From IMG/VR virus record IMGVR_UViG_3300027759_000043: DNA of 64,000 nucleotides. One strand, written 5' to 3'. This DNA comes from a virus. Lineage: Duplodnaviria; Caudoviricetes. Shown here piece after piece: positions 3,215 through 30,068 of this stretch. Both the position numbers and the translations under genes were made by a program. How positions within the stretch are numbered: position 1 is the first letter of the stretch; every line of letters starts with the position of its first letter. The notes beneath the pieces are model-generated. The model did not search any database. It was given only the letters and a program-made list of their open reading frames with translations, and was not told where the DNA came from.

Positions 3215-4234
3215 ATGACTGCTCGAATTGGCTTTTGTTGTAAATGGCTTAATGACCCTAGTGAGTGTGGGGGTATGAAAGTCAATGCTGTGGACCGTGA
3301 CCTAAACGGCAGATCTACCACCATGCGCTGGTTGCGTGAACATCCTGCAGACGCCGATCAGCGTCAGTGGGACATCATGAACCACAATGCGGCAGCCGCA
3401 GTGCGATTGATTGAGCGTGTGGCCACATTACCTGAGGGTCGTAGAATGGTCCGTCTAGGCAGTGAGATGCTACAAGGCTACACTGAGAAAGATTGGATCA
3501 ACTGGTGGCAACGTACTGAAATTCAAGATCACTGTGCTAAAATATTTGCTCCTGTGGGCGATACTGCTCGGAGGCTTGGCGTTCGGCTATCCTTCCATCC
3601 AGGGCAATTTTGTGTGCTGGCAAGTGAAAGTGATGAGATTGTGGAACGATCCATCCTCGAGTTTGAATACCATGCTGACATGGCACGGTGGATGGGCTAC
3701 GGAGAAACCTGGCATGATCATGGATTCAAGATCAACGTACACTTGTCGGGCAAAGGCGGCCCTGCTAAGTTTTTGCAAACACTCAAGCGATTGAGTCCCG
3801 AGGCTCGCAACCTCATAACTATCGAAAATGATGAGATGACAAATGGATTGGACACTACTTTGGCTGTGGCTCAGCATGTGGCTCTTGTGTTGGATGTACA
3901 TCACCACTGGATCAACTCAGGCGAATACATCTCGCCCACGGACGTTCGCACAAGTAGGGTTATTGACTCTTGGCGTGGTGTTCGTCCTGCAATGCATTTT
4001 AGTACTAGTCGCGAGGACGTTTTGGTCGACCATGATCGAACAGTTCGACCAGACCTTGCTGAACTTCTTGCTAGAGGTTATAAAAAGCAGAAACTCCGAG
4101 CGCACAGTGACTTCTGTTGGAATCGGGCTGTGAACGACTGGGTCTTGGGCTTTGCTGACGACTTTGACATACAAGTAGAAGCCAAAGGCAAGAACTTGGC
4201 TAGTCAGCAGTTGTTTGACCAGTCAAATCTGTAA
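3215..4234 (+). CDS. uvsE: UV damage endonuclease
   Basis: RIGFCC start, RLSFHPGQFCVL, IENDE, LDVHHH, HFS, RAHSD, VEAKGK motifs. Confidence 0.9.
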   Translation: MTARIGFCCKWLNDPSECGGMKVNAVDRDLNGRSTTMRWLREHPADADQRQWDIMNHNAAAAVRLIERVATLPEGRRMVRLGSEMLQGYTEKDWINWWQRTEIQDHCAKIFAPVGDTARRLGVRLSFHPGQFCVLASESDEIVERSILEFEYHADMARWMGYGETWHDHGFKINVHLSGKGGPAKFLQTLKRLSPEARNLITIENDEMTNGLDTTLAVAQHVALVLDVHHHWINSGEYISPTDVRTSRVIDSWRGVRPAMHFSTSREDVLVDHDRTVRPDLAELLARGYKKQKLRAHSDFCWNRAVNDWVLGFADDFDIQVEAKGKNLASQQLFDQSNL

Positions 4235-4263
4235 CAAAATTGTAACACAAATTGGCCTAAATA
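4229..4263 (+). promoter_or_regulatory. Pho box plus TAAATA motif upstream of pstS
   Basis: CTGTAAC-AAAA-TTGTAAC (4229-4246, 11-bp period), then 11 nt, then TAAATA. Confidence 0.85.
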
Positions 4264-4286: not shown

Positions 4287-5291
4287 GTGAAACAATTATT
4301 TGCAATCTTACTAGCGTCAATATCAATCTCAGCATCAGCACAGACCATAACAGGTGCTGGTGCAACATTCCCATACCCTATCTATTCCAAGTGGTCAGAA
4401 CTTTATAACAAAGAAACTGGCGTAGCACTCAACTATCAATCAATTGGGTCCAGTGGCGGCATTCGTCAAATTGATGCCCGTACAGTCACATTTGGTGCAA
4501 CTGATGCGCCTGTGCCTGGCGACAAACTAGACAAGAACGGTCAAGTACAGTTTCCCGCTATCATTGGCGGCACAGTTCCTATTGTGAACCTGGATGGATT
4601 CAAGCCCGGCGAGTTGCGTATTACAGGTCCTGTAATGGCAGAAGTGTTCTTGGGTGAAATCTCCAAATGGAATGATCCAAAGTTGGCGGCACTTAATCCA
4701 GGTAAAAAATTGCCTGACTTAGAAATTACTATTGTGCATCGTGCAGACGGTTCAGGTACTACATTTAACTGGACAGACTACTTGACAGTGGTCAGCACCA
4801 AATGGGCCGAAAAAGTAGGCAAAGGCGCCGCAGTTAAATGGCCAGCCGCAACATCAGTGGGCGGCAAAGGCAACGAAGGTGTTGCTGCCAATGTACAACG
4901 TGTTAAGGGCTCCATTGGCTATGTTGAATATGCCTATGTTAAAAAGAACAACTTGACTTTCTTGCAGTTGCAAAACAAGTCAGGCAAGTATGTCAGTCCA
5001 GATGATCTAACATTTGCTGCCGCGGCAGCCGGTGCTGATTGGTTCTCAGTCTCAGGTATGGGCGTGAGCATTGTGGATCAAAAGGGTGATGCTGTTTGGC
5101 CAGTGAGTACAGCCAGTTTTATCATCATGTACAAAGATCCCACAGACAAGAAAGCCAGCCAAGATACGTTGAAGTTCTTTGACTGGGCGTTCAAGAACGG
5201 TAAGAAAGCCGCAGAGGAATTGGACTATGTGGCCTTACCAGATAGCCTAACAAAGCAAATTCGCGAGCGAGTCTGGAGCCAGATTAAATAA
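4287..5291 (+). CDS. pstS: Phosphate ABC transporter substrate-binding protein; start revised to GTG 4287 behind AGGAG
   Basis: Signal peptide, GAGATFPYP, YQSIGSSGG, RADGSGTT, GSIGYVEY. Confidence 0.95.
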   Translation: MKQLFAILLASISISASAQTITGAGATFPYPIYSKWSELYNKETGVALNYQSIGSSGGIRQIDARTVTFGATDAPVPGDKLDKNGQVQFPAIIGGTVPIVNLDGFKPGELRITGPVMAEVFLGEISKWNDPKLAALNPGKKLPDLEITIVHRADGSGTTFNWTDYLTVVSTKWAEKVGKGAAVKWPAATSVGGKGNEGVAANVQRVKGSIGYVEYAYVKKNNLTFLQLQNKSGKYVSPDDLTFAAAAAGADWFSVSGMGVSIVDQKGDAVWPVSTASFIIMYKDPTDKKASQDTLKFFDWAFKNGKKAAEELDYVALPDSLTKQIRERVWSQIK

Positions 5292-5340: not shown

Positions 5341-5364
5341 AAGCACCGCAAGGTGCTTTTTTTT
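5341..5364 (+). terminator. Rho-independent terminator
   Basis: AAGCACC-GCAA-GGTGCTT followed by T-run. Confidence 0.85.
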
Positions 5365-5415
5365 GGGCTAGTTTTAAACTTAGACACGGTAAATACATCA
5401 AAAGGGCTGTTTACT

Positions 5416-7866
5416 GTGTCTATAAAAAAACCTTCCGCTGTTGAGTCAATATACGTTACTACCACTGATATTACTCCTGTTAAAAAACCTTCCGCGGTTA
5501 ATTCGGCATACGTTACTACTGCTAATACCACTGACATTACTCCTGTTACAAAACCTTCCGCGGTTAATGCACCGCAAGTTATCACCGATACTAATCCGGT
5601 TACAAAACCTTCTACGGTTGATTCCCCATATGTTACTCCGGATACTACTCCTACTAGACTTGCTGCCGCACCTGTAGCCGGTGGTGGAATCTCCACTGTA
5701 GTTGCCGCTGTCGCTAATACTGTGTCTGCTGATGCTAATACAGATACTAGCACATCCAGCACAGGATCAAATGTTTCTTATTACGCCTCAGGAATCGAGG
5801 GCATTGCTGGCCTGGTCAACTATGGCCGAGTGTTTGATGGAGCCAATGTGTATGTTACCCTGGAGCAACAGCAATACAATACCTACAATCAAACAATTGG
5901 AATCGGCAACAGTATCAGTGTAACAGGCAATATTACCAGTGGTGGATACTTTATTGGCAATGGTTCACAACTAACAGGATTGGCCGCAACTTATGGCAAC
6001 GCAAATGTAATCACTTTGTTGTCTAGTTTGGGCAGTAATATCATCAGTGGTACAGGTAACATCACAACCACTGCCAACATCAGTGGCGGTTATATCCTAG
6101 GTAACGGCAGTCAATTGAGTGGTATTCCTGCCAGTTATGGCAATGCTAATGTTGTGGCTAACTTGGCGTTGCTAGGTTCAAACCCGGTCAGCACCACAGG
6201 TAATGTGACTGCTGGCTACGTGATTGGTAATGGATCCACATTGACCAGTATTGCTGGCGCCAACGTCACAGGCACTGTGGCCAATGCAACCTATGCGGTG
6301 TCAGCAGGATCAGCAACCAGTGCAACCACATCTAGTACAGTGACAACTGCGGCACAGTCAAATATAACTTCAGTTGGTATATTAAGCAGTTTAAGTTCTA
6401 CAGGTAATGTCACAGGTGGCAACATACTAACTGCTGGTATAATAAGTGCCACAGGTAACATTGCTGGCAACGTATTCATTGGTAATGGTTCACAGTTGAC
6501 TGGTCTACCAGCAACGTATGGCAATGCCAACGTTGTGGCCAATTTAGCAGCCTTGGGTTCAAATCCGGTAAGCACTACAGGCAATGTGACTGGTGGTAAT
6601 TTATTATTTGGACCGGGCATCATTAGTGGCACCGGCAACATAACTGGTGGCAACTTAGATTTATCTTACATGGGCGGCGCGGCAAAAGGTAATCTTACCG
6701 GTGGTAATATATCAGTAACTGGCAACATCACTGGTGGTAACTTGTTAACAGGTGGACTGTTATCAACTGGTGGCAATGTAACTGGTGGAAATATTTTAAC
6801 AGCCGGAGCCGTGAGTGCCTCCAGTACAATTACTGGTGCCAACTTATCAACAGGTGGAACGGTAAGTGCTACCGGTAATGTCGCAGGTGGCAATATCGTA
6901 ACTGGTGGACTGATCTCCGCCACAGGCAATATAACTTCAGCCGGTAACATATTAAATCAAGGCTTTGTATCAAGTACTGGCAATGCCATACACGGCAACA
7001 TCTTAACTGGTGGGCTTGTGAGTGCAACTGGTAATATTACTAGTGGTAATTTGTCAGTAGTAGGAACTATCAATGGTAGCAATATTAATTTAGGATTTAA
7101 CTTATCGGCAACTGGTACAGTGACTGGTTCAAATTTCAATACTACTGGGCTAATAAGTGCAGGCGGTAATGTCACAGTCGGTAACCTACTAACTGCTGGC
7201 ATAATATCAGCAACATCAACAATTACAAGTGCCGCCAACGTAACAGGTGGCAACATCTTAACTGCTGGTGTTGTGACTGCCACAGGCAATATTGTCACAG
7301 CCGGTAACTTTGTGGGCAACGGTGCCGCATTAACCAATGTCACTGTGAGTGTGGCCGGTAACATCATTGGCACACAGTCAAATGTAACCTTGGTAGCCGG
7401 CTCATACAATTGGACATTTAACAACACCGGTAACTTGACTTTGCCCGGCAACACGTTTGCTGTAAACTACGCCAACAACACACAGGTGAATGCGGTCACA
7501 AGATTTGAAGGTGCTTGGACTGTGCCCGTGGGCAACAGCACCCAAAGTTTCACTGTGACACCCAGCGAGACCTACTACATGTGGGTTGATTGCAATATCC
7601 CCAATGGTATCTTGTCCTGGAACGCCACGGCCTCCGTTACCAACACCAACGTACCTGTTGTGGGTGTTCAGTATGCCTGGGTCTACAACGGTGGTGGAAC
7701 ACCTATTGATTTTACCAGCATACCCAATCAGTTTATAGGCACTGCCAACACCATAGTTCGTAGCAATGTGGCTCCTAGTTCAACTACCAATAGATTTGAC
7801 TTTGGAATCAACAACACCAGCGGCGCCAGTCAGACGGTGCGTTACGGTTGGATCGCAATCAGTTGA
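5416..7866 (+). CDS. Tail fibre / virion adhesin-like repeat protein; start uncertain, GTG 5416 preferred because the track start lies inside the terminator
   Basis: TAAATA upstream; Thr/Pro-rich N-terminal repeats then many (S/A)TGN(I/V)TGGN repeats. Confidence 0.75.
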   Translation: MSIKKPSAVESIYVTTTDITPVKKPSAVNSAYVTTANTTDITPVTKPSAVNAPQVITDTNPVTKPSTVDSPYVTPDTTPTRLAAAPVAGGGISTVVAAVANTVSADANTDTSTSSTGSNVSYYASGIEGIAGLVNYGRVFDGANVYVTLEQQQYNTYNQTIGIGNSISVTGNITSGGYFIGNGSQLTGLAATYGNANVITLLSSLGSNIISGTGNITTTANISGGYILGNGSQLSGIPASYGNANVVANLALLGSNPVSTTGNVTAGYVIGNGSTLTSIAGANVTGTVANATYAVSAGSATSATTSSTVTTAAQSNITSVGILSSLSSTGNVTGGNILTAGIISATGNIAGNVFIGNGSQLTGLPATYGNANVVANLAALGSNPVSTTGNVTGGNLLFGPGIISGTGNITGGNLDLSYMGGAAKGNLTGGNISVTGNITGGNLLTGGLLSTGGNVTGGNILTAGAVSASSTITGANLSTGGTVSATGNVAGGNIVTGGLISATGNITSAGNILNQGFVSSTGNAIHGNILTGGLVSATGNITSGNLSVVGTINGSNINLGFNLSATGTVTGSNFNTTGLISAGGNVTVGNLLTAGIISATSTITSAANVTGGNILTAGVVTATGNIVTAGNFVGNGAALTNVTVSVAGNIIGTQSNVTLVAGSYNWTFNNTGNLTLPGNTFAVNYANNTQVNAVTRFEGAWTVPVGNSTQSFTVTPSETYYMWVDCNIPNGILSWNATASVTNTNVPVVGVQYAWVYNGGGTPIDFTSIPNQFIGTANTIVRSNVAPSSTTNRFDFGINNTSGASQTVRYGWIAIS
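5424..5660 (+). repeat. In-frame degenerate tandem repeats encoding KPSAV...T(T/D)ITPV units
   Basis: About four AAAACCTTC(C/T)(G/A)C(T/G)G anchors with spacings that are multiples of 3. Confidence 0.8.
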
Positions 7867-7867
7867 T

Positions 7868-8572
7868 ATGATCATACAAGGTGTAACACTGACTGGCGTT
7901 GCTGTATATGATGGTGTTGTATCCAGTGGGCTACAATTATATCTTGATGCGGCCAGTTCCTCAAGTTATCCAGGTTCGGGCACCACTTGGTTTGATCTAA
8001 GCGGCAACGGCAACGACGTTGCGATGCAGAATTCGGGCAGTATCTCGTACACTGCATCAGGTGGTGGATACTTTACTTTGGCCAGCAATGGCTATTTTAA
8101 CCGAGCCTCAACCACCGGCATTCCCACAGGCACAAGTGCTTATACATTTAGTGTATGGATACAAAAGGGAGCAAGTTGGGGCGGCAACGGCATGATTGGT
8201 GTGGGTAGTTCAACTACTACTAATCAAACCAATCAATTTAGAACTACCAGCACAAATGCGTATGTAAACTATTGGTATGGTAACGATCTAGCCGCAACCA
8301 GCACACTTAGTCCTGCATCACAATGGTTTAATGCTGTGGCACAATGGGATGGGACCACTAGAAAAATCTGGGTCAACGGTACACAACTCAGCAGTGCCGG
8401 GGCCAGTGGACTCAATGTATCCTCAAGTCTACTACAAGTCGGTGCAACCAATGTTGGCGGTAGTGAACCTTTACAAGGCAACATTGGTCAAGCATTGATC
8501 TATAACCGTGCATTAACTTCAACAGAAATTCAACAAAATTACACTGCAACCCGAACAAGGTACGGAGTCTAA
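7868..8572 (+). CDS. Concanavalin A-like / LamG domain virion protein; start revised to ATG 7868
   Basis: LQLYLDA..SYPGSGTTWFDLSGNGN, W..V..WDG...KIWVNG, GNIGQALIYNRALT. Confidence 0.85.
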   Translation: MIIQGVTLTGVAVYDGVVSSGLQLYLDAASSSSYPGSGTTWFDLSGNGNDVAMQNSGSISYTASGGGYFTLASNGYFNRASTTGIPTGTSAYTFSVWIQKGASWGGNGMIGVGSSTTTNQTNQFRTTSTNAYVNYWYGNDLAATSTLSPASQWFNAVAQWDGTTRKIWVNGTQLSSAGASGLNVSSSLLQVGATNVGGSEPLQGNIGQALIYNRALTSTEIQQNYTATRTRYGV

Positions 8573-8600: not shown

Positions 8601-8765
8601 ATGAGTTGGTTCAGAAGACTCCCACACCGTTATCCGCCTGCAACCCCTGCTCCTGCACCGCATAGAACCAGTCCTGCTAGTGATCTAGCACTAGAACAAG
8701 CCAAAAAAATTGGCCCAAGCAGTCATAAAAATGTCAAAAAATCCCGCCCTATAAATAAGGAATGA
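8601..8765 (+). CDS. Small basic Pro-rich hypothetical protein (54 aa; not in track)
   Basis: TAAATA and AAAGGA upstream; MSWFRRLPHRYPP...; stop overlaps next ATG. Confidence 0.55.
   Translation: MSWFRRLPHRYPPATPAPAPHRTSPASDLALEQAKKIGPSSHKNVKKSRPINKE
8720..8757 (+). promoter_or_regulatory. Probable Pho box plus TATAAATA upstream of the GATase-like gene
   Basis: CAGTCAT-AAAA-ATGTCAA (8720-8737), TATAAATA at 8750-8757. Confidence 0.6.
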
Positions 8766-9409
8766 AACCCACTATAGCCCTGTTCATTTACGATCCCAAG
8801 TGTAGTGTACAAAGCGGCAATGGCATTATTCGAGCATTACAATCACACTACAACTTCAAGATATTCGGCAAGAATGAACTGGAAAAAGTTTTCTTTGACG
8901 ATGTGGACATGATTGCAGTTCCGGGCGGACTGGGTGATGCCAGTAGTTATGAAACTGCATTTAGGTACAATGCTCAGCCAGTACGAGATTTTGTAGCACA
9001 GGGTGGTCGATACCTTGGCATCTGTATGGGTGCTTACTGGGCCGGAAGTCACTATCTTGATATACTGCAAGATGCGGATGCTGAACAATACATTTGTCGC
9101 CCTGGAACAGACACACGTAGGCCACATGCTAAAAATTTAGATGTGCATTGGAATCATGTTCCTCAAAAAATGTTCTTTTATGATGGCTGTGCCTTGGTAG
9201 GCGATACAAACAAATTCCGAACTGTGGCAACCTATGCTAATGGTGATCCCATGGCTATTCAGCAAAACAACATTGGCCTAATAGGATGTCATCCCGAAAG
9301 TGAACAGTTCTGGTTCGACAGTTATTCATGGATGCGGGGTCGATATCACGGCGGAGAGCATCACAGGCTCTTACTTGAATTTGTTGATCAAATGTTTGTC
9401 ACAAAATAG
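8762..9409 (+). CDS. Class I glutamine amidotransferase-like (BPL-N type) protein
   Basis: AVPGGLG, GGRYLGICMGAY (Cys elbow), GCHPE (His-x-Glu). Confidence 0.8.
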   Translation: MKPTIALFIYDPKCSVQSGNGIIRALQSHYNFKIFGKNELEKVFFDDVDMIAVPGGLGDASSYETAFRYNAQPVRDFVAQGGRYLGICMGAYWAGSHYLDILQDADAEQYICRPGTDTRRPHAKNLDVHWNHVPQKMFFYDGCALVGDTNKFRTVATYANGDPMAIQQNNIGLIGCHPESEQFWFDSYSWMRGRYHGGEHHRLLLEFVDQMFVTK

Positions 9410-9430
9410 TAACACAGATCTGCCTAAATA
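9396..9430 (+). promoter_or_regulatory. Pho box plus TAAATA motif upstream of plcP
   Basis: TTGTCAC-AAAA-TAGTAAC (9396-9413), then 11 nt, then TAAATA; shares GCCTAAATA with the pstS site. Confidence 0.8.
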
Positions 9431-9436
9431 CTTGCT

Positions 9437-10231
9437 ATGCTAAAAACATACCGCAGTATTTTTATCAGTGACGTACATCTTGGCACAAGAGACTGCAAGG
9501 CAGAAGAACTAAACAATTTTTTAAAACATAACTCATGTGATACGCTGTATCTAGTGGGAGACATCATCGATGCGTGGAAGATACAACAAAATAAATTGCG
9601 ATGGAAACAAAGCCACACCAATGTGGTACGCAGAGTACTTGGACATGCCAAACGTGGCACTAGGGTGGTATACGTAGCCGGTAATCATGACGAATTCCTG
9701 CGACCCATGATACCATACGCGGCGTCATTTGGCACTGTGGAAATTTGTAACCAATGCGAACATATAGGTGCAGACGGTCGACATTATCTTGTGGTACACG
9801 GCGACTTATTCGATGGCATCACACGATTAGCACCGTGGTTGAGTTTTTTAGGAGACAAGGCATATGATTTTATCTTGGGACTTAATAGTAGATTTAATTG
9901 GATCCGCCATCGTATGGGTTTTGGTTATTGGAGTCTTAGCCAGTTTCTTAAGCATAGGGTCAAAAAAGCCATTGACTTCATGTTCCACTTTGAACGGAAC
10001 CTCGCAACCTACTGTAAGAAAAGAGGATTTGATGGCGTGGTCTGCGGTCACATACACCACGCAGAAATAAAAGAAATTGACGGTGTTACATACATGAACG
10101 ATGGCGACTGGGTTGAGAGTTGTACAGCCTTAGTTGAACATCATGACGGACGTTGGGAAATTGTAACTTGGACAAAAACACATGACGAAAAAGATACTGA
10201 TAATAACGGACAACTTACCGGACCAAATTAA
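9437..10231 (+). CDS. plcP: PlcP-type phospholipase C (LpxH-like calcineurin metallophosphoesterase)
   Basis: FISDVHLG, LVGDIID, GNHDEFLR (His, not the GNRD of LpxH), VHGD.FD, CGHIHH, NDGDWVESCTA; Pho box upstream; GT4 gene downstream. Confidence 0.85.
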   Translation: MLKTYRSIFISDVHLGTRDCKAEELNNFLKHNSCDTLYLVGDIIDAWKIQQNKLRWKQSHTNVVRRVLGHAKRGTRVVYVAGNHDEFLRPMIPYAASFGTVEICNQCEHIGADGRHYLVVHGDLFDGITRLAPWLSFLGDKAYDFILGLNSRFNWIRHRMGFGYWSLSQFLKHRVKKAIDFMFHFERNLATYCKKRGFDGVVCGHIHHAEIKEIDGVTYMNDGDWVESCTALVEHHDGRWEIVTWTKTHDEKDTDNNGQLTGPN

Positions 10232-11192
10232 TGGCGTGGTCACCACTTACAAGAACATCGAGGCTTGTGCGGTACTGGATGGTTATCACGTTGATTATAT
10301 TGATCCCGGGCGGTTCCGCTACATTAATTGCCCTCGCTACCACGAAGTCAAGATTGCCTATCCCCGGAACTTGGGCGCGAAGATTGAGGAGATTGCTCCG
10401 GATTATATCCATATCGCCACAGAGGGTCCTCTTGGTCTGTGGGCTAGAGCATATCTTTCACTGGGCGATATTCGTCACAATACCGCTTATCACACTAAGT
10501 TTCCTGAAGGGCTCAAAAAGTTATTTGGAATACCTGAGTCTATTACCTGGCGTTTTGTACGATGGTTTCATAAACATAGTGGCAAGGTTTTAACAACAAC
10601 CGATTCAATGGTAGCAGAGTTGCAATCGCACGGATTCAATGGCGAGGTAGTTCCTTGGACACGCGGTGTTGACCGTGAAATCTTTACTCCTGCACTTAGA
10701 GAAGATGCGCCAGCAAAATATCTCTTATGTGTTAGTCGTGTGAGTAAAGAAAAGAATCTTGAACAATTCCTCGAACTTGACTATCCTGGATATCAAAAGA
10801 TCATGGTAGGGGATGGACCCATGCTTGACACTTACAAGAAAAAGTATCCTGATGTACACTTTACAGGTTTTAAAACAGGTCGAGATTTAGCACGTTACTA
10901 TGCCAATGCTGACGTATTTGTGTTCCCAAGCCAGTGGGAAACATTTGGTATTGTGATGATTGAAGCCATGGCCTGCGGAACCCCAGTTGCGGCTTACCCT
11001 GTTCAGGGGCCTGAAGATGTCATAGATGAAGGCATTACTGGCTGTATGAATCTTGATCTAAAGCAGGCAGTTACTGATTGTTTATTTTTAAATAGACAGA
11101 AAGTATGGGAAGGTAGTCAACGTTGGAGTTGGGAGAGAGCATGGGCAATATTCCGCGACAATCTTACTCCCAATCACCTGTGGACCAATTAA
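10182..11192 (+). CDS. agt: GT4 glycosyltransferase, Agt-like diacylglycerol (glucosyl/glucuronosyl) transferase
   Basis: QINGVV, HIATEGPLG, YHTKFPE, RGVD, RVSKEKNL, VGDGP, DVFVFPS..ETFG..EAMACGTPV; adjacent to plcP. Confidence 0.8.
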   Translation: MTKKILIITDNLPDQINGVVTTYKNIEACAVLDGYHVDYIDPGRFRYINCPRYHEVKIAYPRNLGAKIEEIAPDYIHIATEGPLGLWARAYLSLGDIRHNTAYHTKFPEGLKKLFGIPESITWRFVRWFHKHSGKVLTTTDSMVAELQSHGFNGEVVPWTRGVDREIFTPALREDAPAKYLLCVSRVSKEKNLEQFLELDYPGYQKIMVGDGPMLDTYKKKYPDVHFTGFKTGRDLARYYANADVFVFPSQWETFGIVMIEAMACGTPVAAYPVQGPEDVIDEGITGCMNLDLKQAVTDCLFLNRQKVWEGSQRWSWERAWAIFRDNLTPNHLWTN

Positions 11193-11209
11193 ACAAACAA
11201 AGGAAAAAT

Positions 11210-11818
11210 ATGAAAGAAATCTTACAAACACTTCGCGAGCAACGCTGGGACGACCATCGTTACTATCATCACAGTAGAATCAATCAATTCTTACACTTAA
11301 TCTCAGCCTCAAGTTTCTTGATTGCTTATGTGTATCTGTTTATTGATCCTGTTGTGAGTGCCTGGATTGCCTGGTTAGTTGCCATGACCACTCGCCAAGC
11401 CGGACACTTCTTCTTTGAACCACACGGCTACGATGAATACAACAAGGCCACATTCGAATACAAAGAAAAAATTAAGATTGGTTTCAATCTAAAACGCAAA
11501 CGAGTATTGTTATCTTGTTGGATAGCAGTTCCTATCTTGGCATTCTTTGATGCTGAGTTGATGAACTTGTTAATACCTGACAATGATCCCATGACATTTG
11601 TAAATCGTGTGGGCATGGGATGGTTATGGTTGGGTGCCGCCGGCGTTGTGTTTAGAATGATTCAACTGACTGCATTACAAAGCCGAAAGGTTGCACTGGT
11701 CTGGTGTCTAAAGATCATAACTGATCCATTCCATGATGTATGGATCTATCGTAAGAGCCCTATATATCTGATGCAGGGTCAGTTAATAGATCCTGACCTA
11801 AGACAAGATTATGCCTGA
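11210..11818 (+). CDS. Multi-pass membrane protein, tentatively Mpo1/DUF962-like; start revised to ATG 11210
   Basis: AAAGGA RBS; RWDDHRYYHHSRINQFLH, RQAGHFFFE; several hydrophobic helices. Confidence 0.65.
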   Translation: MKEILQTLREQRWDDHRYYHHSRINQFLHLISASSFLIAYVYLFIDPVVSAWIAWLVAMTTRQAGHFFFEPHGYDEYNKATFEYKEKIKIGFNLKRKRVLLSCWIAVPILAFFDAELMNLLIPDNDPMTFVNRVGMGWLWLGAAGVVFRMIQLTALQSRKVALVWCLKIITDPFHDVWIYRKSPIYLMQGQLIDPDLRQDYA

Positions 11819-11898
11819 TTGCAAAGACTAGCAAGTCTTGCTTCATTGACAATTTTGTATGTGCTTTAGTTTTAAGCACCGTAGTTTAAATACTTGCT

Positions 11899-12039
11899 AT
11901 GAGCAGTATTTTTGAAGAACTAAACGACTTAATAACAGAGAACCCTGTTGGCAAAGTGCTGGGGATCACTCTGCTGGTTCTTGTTTTCTCTGGAGCCATT
12001 GCTCTTGGGTTTGCCTATTGGATAACTCACAGACATTGA
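11899..12039 (+). CDS. Small single-TM protein (46 aa; not in track)
   Basis: TAAATACTTGCTATG upstream context; hydrophobic C-terminal half. Confidence 0.55.
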   Translation: MSSIFEELNDLITENPVGKVLGITLLVLVFSGAIALGFAYWITHRH

Positions 12040-26863: not shown

Positions 26864-26892
26864 AATCTACGCCGTTAATGTTTATGCAAAGG

Positions 26893-26927
26893 TATTTATC
26901 ACAACCTTTGTTACACTAAAATTACAG
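26893..26927 (-). promoter_or_regulatory. Pho box plus TAAATA motif (minus strand)
   Basis: Minus strand CTGTAAT-TTTA-GTGTAAC, then 11 nt, then TAAATA. Confidence 0.7.
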
Positions 26928-28861: not shown

Positions 28862-29233
28862 ATGAACTTGGAAACTATCATTACTGCCATGTTTACCGGA
28901 GTAGGATTTGGTGTTATATTATTTTTGCTATTTGTTTGGATAATATCTCGCAGACTCCAGTTTCGAGTTGATTCGGAACTGTCAGGTATCATGGAAAAGT
29001 TGGCCCAGGACCGGCTGATAGCACTCACAGTAGAGGTTGACCAAAACCAATATTTCTGCTATAATGCTATTACTAAAGATTTTGTATGCCAGGGTTACAG
29101 TTTAAAAGAAATTGTAGAACGATTTCGTTTGCGTTATCCCAACAAGGCTGCCGCCATATACGACGGCGACGAAACAGCAGTAAAGACACTTAAATCTCAA
29201 ATGGAAGACTTGGATGAAAATCTCACTTGTTAG
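28862..29233 (+). CDS. Hypothetical protein with N-terminal TM helix
   Basis: Hydrophobic N-terminus; overlaps next gene. Confidence 0.6.
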   Translation: MNLETIITAMFTGVGFGVILFLLFVWIISRRLQFRVDSELSGIMEKLAQDRLIALTVEVDQNQYFCYNAITKDFVCQGYSLKEIVERFRLRYPNKAAAIYDGDETAVKTLKSQMEDLDENLTC

Positions 29234-30068
29234 CGATGTGCATTTAGAATTTGGAGACTTGGACTTTGATAATGATCAAGGTGCTGAAGTCCTGATTCTC
29301 TCTGGCGACATTTGCGTGGCCCATGATATCACACAACGTGATCCATACGGCGTGATGGGCCCAGAATATCGTAGCAATCGCTTTCATGATTTCTTTCAAC
29401 GCTGTCATGCAAGATTCCCACATGTGATTTACATTGTGGGCAATCACGAATACTACCATGGTGACTTTGGCACTGCTCTTGCACATCTAAAGGATGTGCT
29501 GGGCTACTTGCCCAATTTGCACATTCTAGAAAAAGAGTCAATCACTATCGGCGATGTCACATTCTTGTGTGGTACTCTATGGACCGATATGAATCAGGAA
29601 GATCCAGACACCTTGTATCGCATTCGCAGTTACATGAATGACTTTAGAATCATCCGGGACAGTCGCTATCCTGTGCATTACAAGGACAGCGAAGGCAAAC
29701 ACCACACACGTGAGGGCCGATTCAGTCCCGAAATCAGTGTGGAAGAACACCGGGCCATGGTGAAGTTTGTAAAGGAGTCAGTTGACGCTGACCCCACTGC
29801 TCGGTATGTGGTTGTTGGTCATCACTCGCCTAGCAGATCAAGTACTCACCCACAGTATGCAGATCAAACCATGGTGAATGGTGCTTACAGTAGCGACTTG
29901 GATCAGTTTATCCTTGATCGCCCACAAATCAAATTGTGGACACATGGACACACTCATCATGAGTTTGACTACATGATTGGCTCGTGCCGTGTGGTGTGTA
30001 ACCCACGTGGTTATGATGGATATGAACAACAGGCAGAACAATGGCAACTAAAAACAGTGGATATCTAA
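29214..30068 (+). CDS. Calcineurin-like metallophosphoesterase
   Basis: SDVHLE, SGDI, GNHEYY, GHHSP, HGHTH, NPRGY. Confidence 0.9.
   Translation: MKISLVSDVHLEFGDLDFDNDQGAEVLILSGDICVAHDITQRDPYGVMGPEYRSNRFHDFFQRCHARFPHVIYIVGNHEYYHGDFGTALAHLKDVLGYLPNLHILEKESITIGDVTFLCGTLWTDMNQEDPDTLYRIRSYMNDFRIIRDSRYPVHYKDSEGKHHTREGRFSPEISVEEHRAMVKFVKESVDADPTARYVVVGHHSPSRSSTHPQYADQTMVNGAYSSDLDQFILDRPQIKLWTHGHTHHEFDYMIGSCRVVCNPRGYDGYEQQAEQWQLKTVDI

Follow-up and report, generated by a model that had tools for sequence, protein, structure and literature searches.

Can a bacteriophage draw on the membrane lipids of its host as a source of phosphorus? This question is raised by a stretch of viral DNA 64,000 nucleotides long (Duplodnaviria, Caudoviricetes; IMG/VR record IMGVR_UViG_3300027759_000043), the whole of which we call the window. 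Four co-directional genes lie on its plus strand within positions 8720-11818, and two of them are predicted to encode a PlcP-type metallophosphoesterase and a GT4 glycosyltransferase related to bacterial Agt (Table 1). An earlier note on this DNA had proposed that they form a lipid remodelling module controlled by Pho boxes. We conclude that they are a real and widespread phage auxiliary module for predicted lipid remodelling; from the sequences we infer the enzyme activities, PhoB binding, and benefit in phosphorus. As far as sequence analysis reaches, none of the refuting outcomes named in the note was observed. What is new is the phage-borne form of a known bacterial system, PlcP-Agt, which the viral contigs compared here indicate to be widespread in freshwater jumbo phages.

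The phosphoesterase is 264 amino acids (aa) long and matches the Pfam family Metallophos (48 bits). Six motifs have been listed for PlcP (DxH, GDxxD, GNHD, HGD, GHIH, GDW; PMC9239053 Fig. S5) and all are present in the window protein as DVH, GDIID, GNHD, HGD, GHIH, and GDW. The strings GNHD, CGHIHH, and DWVESCTA on which the note had based its assignment are all there. The motifs are essentially invariant in 70 phage sequences. The histidine of GNHD is conserved in PlcP, missing from LpxH, and needed for phospholipase activity (PMC9239053 Fig. S5); we found GNHD in all 70 phage PlcPs and in every sampled bacterial PlcP-like sequence. The family occurs in 89 of 301 sampled Pseudomonadota (41-59% identity) and in 89 of 251 sampled Bacteroidota (mostly 34-52%), and the phage protein is 53-59% identical to the products of those Pseudomonadota genes that have an Agt homologue behind them. 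The PlcP enzymes of OB3b and HTCC7211 share 51% identity (PMC9239053), a value similar to those between the phage and bacterial proteins. By these features the window phosphoesterase is, at the family level, a predicted PlcP and not an LpxH.

In a tree obtained by a quick maximum-likelihood search, 70 freshwater phage PlcPs formed one group (SH-like approximate likelihood ratio test, SH-aLRT, 83), whose internal branches are very short and which is separate from a bacterial group (99). PlcP-type genes are also found in two isolated phages: in the SAR11 myophage Pelagibacter phage Mosig EXVC030M (Mosig_00120; MT647606, 93031-94866; 47.5% identity), where the gene divergently adjoins pstS, and in Synechococcus phage S-SRM01 (QPX48289; 36.5% identity). 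The Mosig protein nested with two Pseudomonadota and the S-SRM01 protein paired with a Bacteroidota-type sequence on long branches, suggesting that phages acquired plcP at least three times, with the placement of the two long-branch rows being unsure.

The note had claimed a GT4 overlapping plcP, and the overlapping open reading frame (ORF) does match Glyco_transf_4 and Glycos_transf_1, in keeping with a GT4 of GT-B architecture. Its product aligns over its full length with bacterial GT4s encoded directly 3' of plcP (38-43% identity). Such a gene directly follows plcP in nine of the 12 best Pseudomonadota loci and on three contigs of metagenome-assembled genomes (MAGs), and a plcP-agt operon has been defined experimentally (PMC9239053). 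The bacterial neighbours carry GRVAxEKN, FPSxTDTFG, HTxFPE, and W(S/T)RGVD. In the literature, GTcp/Agt enzymes are recognised by the motifs GRVAxEKN, FPSxTDTFG, and HTxFPE and by an (S/T)R and a Trp that contact diacylglycerol; the catalytic dyad of GTcp is His104-Asp256, whose His belongs to HTxFPE and whose Asp belongs to FPSxTDTFG (PMC8231724). The phage GT4 keeps the equivalent of the catalytic His (AYHTKFPE), and WTRGVD and RW(S/T)W are conserved at the positions of the diacylglycerol-contacting residues Thr162, Arg163, and Trp320. In its SRVSKEKN, Ser stands at the positions of both Gly and Ala of GRVAxEKN, and the Arg, Glu, Lys, and Asn are unchanged.

The likeness to Agt that the note had seen is thus real in homology and in the His, TRGVD, and Trp, and it breaks down at the catalytic Asp. 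In 46 of the 49 phage GT4s, SRVSKEKN is accompanied by Trp-Glu (FPSxWETFG) in place of Thr-Asp; the other three have (T/A)DTFG. All 11 bacterial plcP neighbours have TDT(F/Y/L)G. The D256E change in GTcp lowers activity by more than 90% (PMC8231724), which suggests that the donor or acceptor of the phage enzyme may differ. Glu is native at this position in other GT4 enzymes such as MshA (PMC8231724). The change to Trp-Glu has become fixed and purifying selection acts on it; we read it as a derived, functional variant. The phage GT4 can be assigned on its motifs to the Agt/GTcp clade at the family level, though it strictly fails one defining feature of that clade, and its sugar donor or product may differ from that of bacterial Agt. 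As a separate observation, the window also encodes a protein of the UDP-glucose/GDP-mannose dehydrogenase family (15-1253), a possible source of UDP-glucuronic acid. UDP-glucuronic acid is a donor for Agt in bacteria, enzymes of the Agt/GTcp clade transferring glucose, galactose, or glucuronic acid from UDP-sugars to diacylglycerol.

Relatives of the module were collected by a scan of IMG/VR, in which at least 549 viral contigs encode a relative of the 264-aa PlcP; we kept 80 that are 80-95% identical. The plcP and GT4 genes are adjacent in about 58 of these 80 loci, and the pair was found in none of 50,697 GenBank phage records. The glutaminase-like gene is near plcP in about 35 of the 80 with variable position and orientation, and the DUF962 gene is restricted to the five closest relatives (L001-L005). 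Median ratios of nonsynonymous to synonymous substitution (dN/dS) relative to the window copy were 0.05 (PlcP), 0.13 (GT4), and 0.07 (glutaminase-like gene), and saturation at synonymous sites was frequent. Such strong purifying selection indicates long-maintained, functional phage genes. In lake viromes the genes are plentiful, with thousands of proteins showing more than 80% identity.

We then asked how the module might be controlled. One architecture recurs at three sites in the window, 5' of pstS, of the glutaminase-like gene, and of plcP: 7-bp direct repeats with an 11-bp period are followed by a -10-like TAAATA, and the pstS repeat is the best copy of the three. From the -10-like element to the start codon there are 23 nt at pstS, with a Shine-Dalgarno sequence, 6 nt at plcP, and 4 nt at the glutaminase-like gene. 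Pho boxes had been noted before at the latter two genes. The box of the glutaminase-like gene is where it was reported, and the plcP repeat is likewise present, although it is located inside the last codons of the preceding gene (stop codon 9407-9409). No sigma-70 -35/-10 promoter was predicted upstream.

Among the related phages, TGTAAYA-N4-TGTAAYA followed by (G/C)NTAAATA is found 5' of plcP in 49 of 70 distinct regions, and some related plcP regions have three repeats at 11-bp spacing. The flanking sequence, even the preceding gene, differs among the 49 regions, so this conservation is far beyond chance. In 1.12 Mb of related phage DNA, with roughly 1,200 genes, the box with TAAATA stands 5' of 79 ORFs, which encode PlcP (58), glutaminase-like proteins (6), PstS (4), and an unknown 118-aa family (6), the rest being single cases. 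The pstS homologues with the element are in four related loci (L004/L005, L062, and L069). We read the element as a Pho box because pstS shares it and because its geometry fits: the direct repeats are 7 bp long, their period is 11 bp, and they occupy the place of a -35 element. We consider that the phage module is probably controlled by PhoB.

Other observations speak against this assignment. A loose motif scan of the window gave 22 matches where 11.5 were expected, which is not significant alone. The half-site TGTAAYA agrees with the E. coli Pho-box consensus at five of seven positions and departs from it at two, although that may not be the consensus of the host. The box is absent from about 20 of the 70 plcP upstream regions. 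Finally, TAAATA(C) is similar to T4 late promoters and is the general promoter type of this phage, found 5' of many unrelated genes; PhoB normally acts through region 4 of sigma-70 and is not known to act otherwise, so its mode of action at such a promoter is puzzling. The enterobacterial consensus CTGTCATA(A/T)A(T/A)CTGTCA(C/T), at three or fewer mismatches, matched the window only at 8720-8737, one match against 0.5 expected, with the same reservation that the host consensus may differ.

These points could be accommodated if the TGTAAYA repeats bind a phage-encoded regulator or mark a class of phage promoter, with expression independent of phosphate. The downstream element is then simply the phage's own, and a half-site of TGTAACA, unlike the enterobacterial TGTCATA, is no surprise. 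Exact copies of the repeat in the MAG of a candidate host, Haliscomenobacter, are confined to its two phage contigs, and we found no consistent Pho-box match 5' of bacterial plcP genes, for which start codons and host consensus are uncertain. We nevertheless regard this alternative as unlikely. The repeat hardly occurs other than at plcP, pstS, and the glutaminase-like gene located with them. A phosphate regulon would give this pattern and a general promoter class would hardly do so, and the 7-bp repeat, the 11-bp period, and the 10 nt to the -10 element are the architecture of PhoB sites. We therefore retain probable PhoB control as the preferred reading. A bolder proposal, which we hold only tentatively and think unlikely, is that host PhoB activates a late-type TAAATA promoter without a -35 element, that the Trp-Glu GT4 makes a glycolipid foreign to the host, or both. 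If the first were true, phosphate sensing would be wired into T4-like late transcription in a mode that has not been described for PhoB; if the second, the product would be a virus-specific membrane lipid and a possible marker of infection in lakes.

Several other occurrences of the element deserve mention. The 118-aa family, which has no Pfam match, stands behind the box and TAAATA in six related loci (for example 5619-5975 of L038) and is a candidate phosphate-regulated gene. A fourth box in the window (26892-26926, minus strand) consists of TGTAATT-TTAG-TGTAACA, 10 nt, and TAAATACC, and is 5' of a 143-aa ORF (26863-26432) with a weak match to the C-terminal domain of malonyl-CoA decarboxylase (30 bits); this gene may join the putative phosphate regulon. 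The 14-mer AAATACTTGCTATG is identical at 9426-9439 and 11888-11901, where it forms the promoter-to-start junctions of two genes: plcP, and the gene for a predicted membrane peptide of 46 aa (11899-12039) immediately 3' of the module. Within two mismatches it has four occurrences where 0.9 are expected.

The mechanism we propose begins in a phosphate-starved host, where phosphorylated PhoB would bind the repeats at the -35 position and switch on pstS, the glutaminase-fold gene, and plcP-GT4, together with the DUF962 gene. PlcP would remove the phosphorylated head group of host phospholipids (phosphatidylethanolamine, phosphatidylglycerol, or phosphatidylcholine) to yield diacylglycerol. The GT4 would use a UDP-sugar to convert this into a phosphorus-free glycolipid, which would keep the membrane intact until lysis; the chemistry follows what has been described for the PlcP/GT4 pathway (PMC9239053, PMC8231724, PMC9804370). 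The lipid phosphorus would join the pool for phage nucleotide synthesis and replication, and since the genome measures about 350 kb, each burst should need an unusually large amount of phosphorus. It counts against this scheme that PlcP releases phosphorylated head groups and not phosphate, so that a phosphatase step is required. Taken as a whole, the reading of these genes as a PlcP-Agt-type lipid-remodelling auxiliary module under phosphate control seems likely to us, and its weakest links are the dependence on PhoB and the exact product of the variant GT4. A metatranscriptome contig is identical to plcP over 9474-9609 (136 nt), a weak hint from one contig with no bearing on induction. None of the listed datasets with the whole module is on record as RNA, and two runs marked 'RNA?' are probably DNA.

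The same enzymes could remodel lipids with a different benefit, one of membrane properties instead of phosphorus supply, while the element may still sense phosphate. Superinfection exclusion, envelope stability in a long jumbo-phage infection, or an altered timing of lysis could each be served in this way. Lipid composition affects phage adsorption and injection (PMC9804370; PMC12282109), the window has many other genes related to glycans or the envelope, and the derived Trp-Glu motif hints at a product other than the host glycolipid. We judge this benefit to be quite unlikely as the main one. The cis element of plcP is shared in the window with pstS, which is known only for phosphate uptake, and the independently acquired plcP of Mosig is also beside pstS; these are two independent links to phosphorus and favour its supply as the benefit.

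A further possibility is suggested by annotation, in which IMG and GenBank treat the phosphoesterase as LpxH; with the GT4 it would then modify lipid A or lipopolysaccharide (LPS). The JGI name for its homologues is UDP-2,3-diacylglucosamine pyrophosphatase LpxH, and GenBank labels the PlcP-type genes of Mosig and S-SRM01 as LpxH too. LpxH has the calcineurin-like fold of metallophosphoesterases in common with the phage PlcP, and of the six motifs for metal and substrate the two share five. Solved LpxH structures in the PDB are the nearest to the window protein, but only at an E of about 1e-5. The two NCBIfam equivalog models for LpxH gave 48.9 bits against a cut-off of 134 and 37.3 bits against one of 190, so that the phage protein is far below both. 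One bacterial genome (G003) has a true LpxH (290 bits) and a PlcP-type gene (40 bits) as separate, paralogous genes, and its LpxH has GNRD where the phage has GNHD. LpxH is on a branch of length 9.7 in the PlcP tree. The neighbour of the phage gene is, moreover, a GT4 of the Agt clade, an arrangement known from plcP-agt operons that were defined by experiment. A grouping with LpxH, which the note had named as the outcome to look out for, did not appear, and we regard an LpxH function as very improbable.

From these comparisons we conclude that phage plcP, as predicted here, is systematically mis-annotated as lpxH; the annotation of the Mosig gene as a UDP-2,3-diacylglucosamine hydrolase, a name that GenBank gives to the S-SRM01 gene too, is probably wrong. 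Viral data list the gene as lpxH under LPS biosynthesis (PMC9611531). Catalogued in this way, a viral share in lipid-phosphorus turnover and glycolipid production in phosphorus-limited lakes would have been overlooked. The function of the PlcP-type genes of Mosig or S-SRM01 is not discussed in the searchable literature.

The window itself encodes proteins that match phage families, among them structural proteins of the virion, a protease of the prohead type, and the products of auxiliary genes. A 765-aa protein is similar to proteins from two jumbo phages, Sinorhizobium phage Phosso and Agrobacterium phage Atu_ph07. It contains no tRNA genes. Hallmark genes were sought in whole-contig searches of five related IMG/VR contigs. 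The large terminase was seen on those of three relatives, one of which also has a T4-type Gp23 capsid gene (Table 1); the phage hallmarks thus come partly from the window (structural proteins) and partly from the contigs of relatives (terminase and capsid). The stretch is present in lake and freshwater metagenomes of 11 studies, and in two independent freshwater studies there are Logan contigs that agree with the window, without a mismatch, across the junctions of the module (8572/8762, 9409/9437, 11192/11210, and 11818/12040). No cellular genome is on record for the window. These bridged junctions and the hallmark genes of the relatives exclude a host fragment or chimera for practical purposes, a concern that the note had raised. 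We thus give next to no credence to the idea that the segment is bacterial (an island of the host, a misassembly, or a contig of bacterial origin miscalled viral): the PlcP-Agt pathway is itself bacterial and two bacterial MAG bins hold near-identical copies of the segment, but these copies are on short contigs (18.5 and 4.5 kb), the larger with phage synteny, no chromosomal homologue above 59% identity was found in the 552 sampled bacterial genomes, and the module genes use the phage's own promoter type.

The Haliscomenobacter MAG (G004; C110, C31, and C15) contains two different phage contigs with phage-type plcP (93% and 86% identity) as well as its own PlcP-like gene, which is 42% identical. 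The phage-type genes reflect either contamination of the bin or a hint to the host, and the latter found no support in the search for the box motif.

How does the module compare with systems that are already known? The bacterial PlcP-Agt pathway is known from Sinorhizobium meliloti SMc00171, PlcP/GTcp of Pelagibacter HTCC7211, Phaeobacter MED193, PlcP/Agt1/Agt2 of Pseudomonas aeruginosa, Agrobacterium Atu2297, and Methylosinus OB3b. As in the phage, plcP is directly before a GT4 gene encoding about 335 aa, the PlcP motifs including GNHD are present, the GT4 has the His, TRGVD, and C-terminal Trp, and there is an association with control by phosphate starvation. Unlike the bacterial system, the phage module is encoded by a jumbo phage, its PlcP forms a clade of its own that is at most 59% identical to any sampled bacterium, and its GT4 has SRVSKEKN and FPSxWETFG (Glu) where bacterial Agt has GRVAxEKN and FPSxTDTFG (Asp). 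The phage also uses a TAAATA-type promoter and has a glutaminase-fold gene attached, with DUF962 in the closest relatives. Mosig and S-SRM01 differ from this phage in that their plcP genes appear to be independent acquisitions, branch with different bacterial groups, and have no adjacent GT4. A 2.6-kb contig in a Competibacteraceae MAG (L083, 130-2658) shows the gene order pstS, plcP, agt and could be a bacterial or a phage fragment; its PlcP is the nearest relative outside the phage clade (56% identity) and its PstS is 50% identical to that of the phage.

Phages are known to boost phosphate uptake with pstS and phoA. Zeng and Chisholm are said to have found in 2012 that pstS and phoA of T4-like cyanophages are regulated by Pho boxes and induced through host PhoR/PhoB. 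Those phages and ours are alike in being T4-related and in having host-type PhoB repeats 5' of phosphorus-acquisition genes including pstS. They differ in that the predicted regulon described here reaches an internal store, the membrane lipids, and in that our phage presumably does not infect a cyanobacterium. Its box is of the proteobacterial type with 7-bp repeats and an 11-bp period, whereas the cyanobacterial box is PyTTAAPyPy(T/A). Cyanophage lipid desaturases (Roitman et al. 2018, as related in PMC12282109) are a further example of auxiliary phage genes directed at the lipids of host membranes. As far as that account goes, they change acyl-chain saturation, with no removal of a phosphate head group and no regulation by phosphate.

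A blastn search with the module gave no match among GenBank phages. Protein searches of GenBank phages picked up PlcP-like genes in Mosig, in S-SRM01, and in three metagenomic records but nowhere else; for the GT4 they gave no Agt-clade match exceeding 30% identity. The note knew of no described phage module for lipid substitution, and our full-text literature search, in which subscription journals were not covered, likewise gave no account of a PlcP encoded by a phage or of a viral module that turns phospholipids into glycolipids. A 2025 study describes the remodelling of lipids during infection as little known (PMC12282109). If our reading is true, the tapping of host membrane phospholipids, a sizeable store of cellular phosphorus, would add a new class to the known forms of viral metabolic reprogramming, and the conserved Pho-box-like element would offer a handle on how a jumbo phage reads the nutrient status of its host.

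Table 1. Predicted features of the module and of the pstS region in the window, and related viral contigs.
Feature	Position	Strand	Size	Remarks
Glutaminase-fold gene (BPL_N/class-I GATase)	8762-9409	+	215 aa	
PlcP-type metallophosphoesterase gene (plcP)	9437-10231	+	264 aa	predicted Mn-dependent phospholipase C yielding diacylglycerol
GT4 glycosyltransferase gene, Agt/GTcp clade, phage variant	10182-11192	+	336 aa	50-nt overlap with plcP
DUF962/Mpo1-like membrane protein gene	11210-11818	+	202 aa	accessory
pstS, periplasmic phosphate-binding protein gene	4287-5291	+	334 aa	GTG start; signal-peptide-like N-terminus
Pho-box-like repeat 5' of pstS	4230-4263	+		TGTAACA-AAAT-TGTAACA (4230-4247), 10 nt, TAAATA (4258-4263)
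Pho-box-like repeat 5' of glutaminase-like gene	8721-8757	+		AGTCATA-AAAA-TGTCAAA (8721-8738), 11 nt, TATAAATA (8750-8757)
Pho-box-like repeat 5' of plcP	9397-9430	+		TGTCACA-AAAT-AGTAACA (9397-9414), 10 nt, TAAATA (9425-9430)
Relative L004 (closest, same gene order)			143 kb	CheckV completeness 41%; large terminase
Relative G557			343 kb	CheckV completeness 99%; large terminase
Relative G558			360 kb	CheckV completeness 100%; large terminase and T4-type Gp23 capsid

The first gene of the module had been described in the note as GATase-like, in agreement with its Pfam match to BPL_N (35.7 bits against a cut-off of 24.2). Its nearest clusters are mostly viral BPL_N proteins. C88 is invariant and H177 and E179 are near-invariant in 16 homologues, and the AlphaFold model (predicted local distance difference test, pLDDT, 91.9) has a class-I glutaminase fold of the PdxT/HisH type (template modelling, TM, score about 0.7). 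The protein is predicted to be a stand-alone class-I glutaminase with a flavodoxin-like fold, a Cys at the nucleophile elbow, and a conserved Cys88-His177-Glu179 triad. The flanking membrane protein was also present as described, except that its start is moved from TTG 11123 to ATG 11210, the most likely start codon. It matches DUF962/Mpo1-like (PF06127) at 21.9 bits, below the cut-off of 24, and its language-model neighbours are Atlas clusters named DUF962 (proteobacterial) or transmembrane protein.

The genes 5' of the module encode a UvdE endonuclease, PstS, an 837-aa repeat protein, and a LamG-domain protein. PstS matches phrog_5385 (E 4.8e-63) and PBP_like_2 (E 5e-29), and a strong terminator is found 3' of its gene at 5341-5358. 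Between pstS and the module are the genes for the 837-aa protein (5353-7866), which has GN(I/V)T-type repeats, and for the LamG-domain protein (7766-8572), both with the appearance of fibre or receptor-binding proteins. Over 6000-7300, skips and rearrangements are numerous in the metagenome contigs, suggesting that this repeat region is hypervariable among strains. A second, unrelated metallophosphoesterase (phrog_1649) is encoded in the window at 29214-30068.

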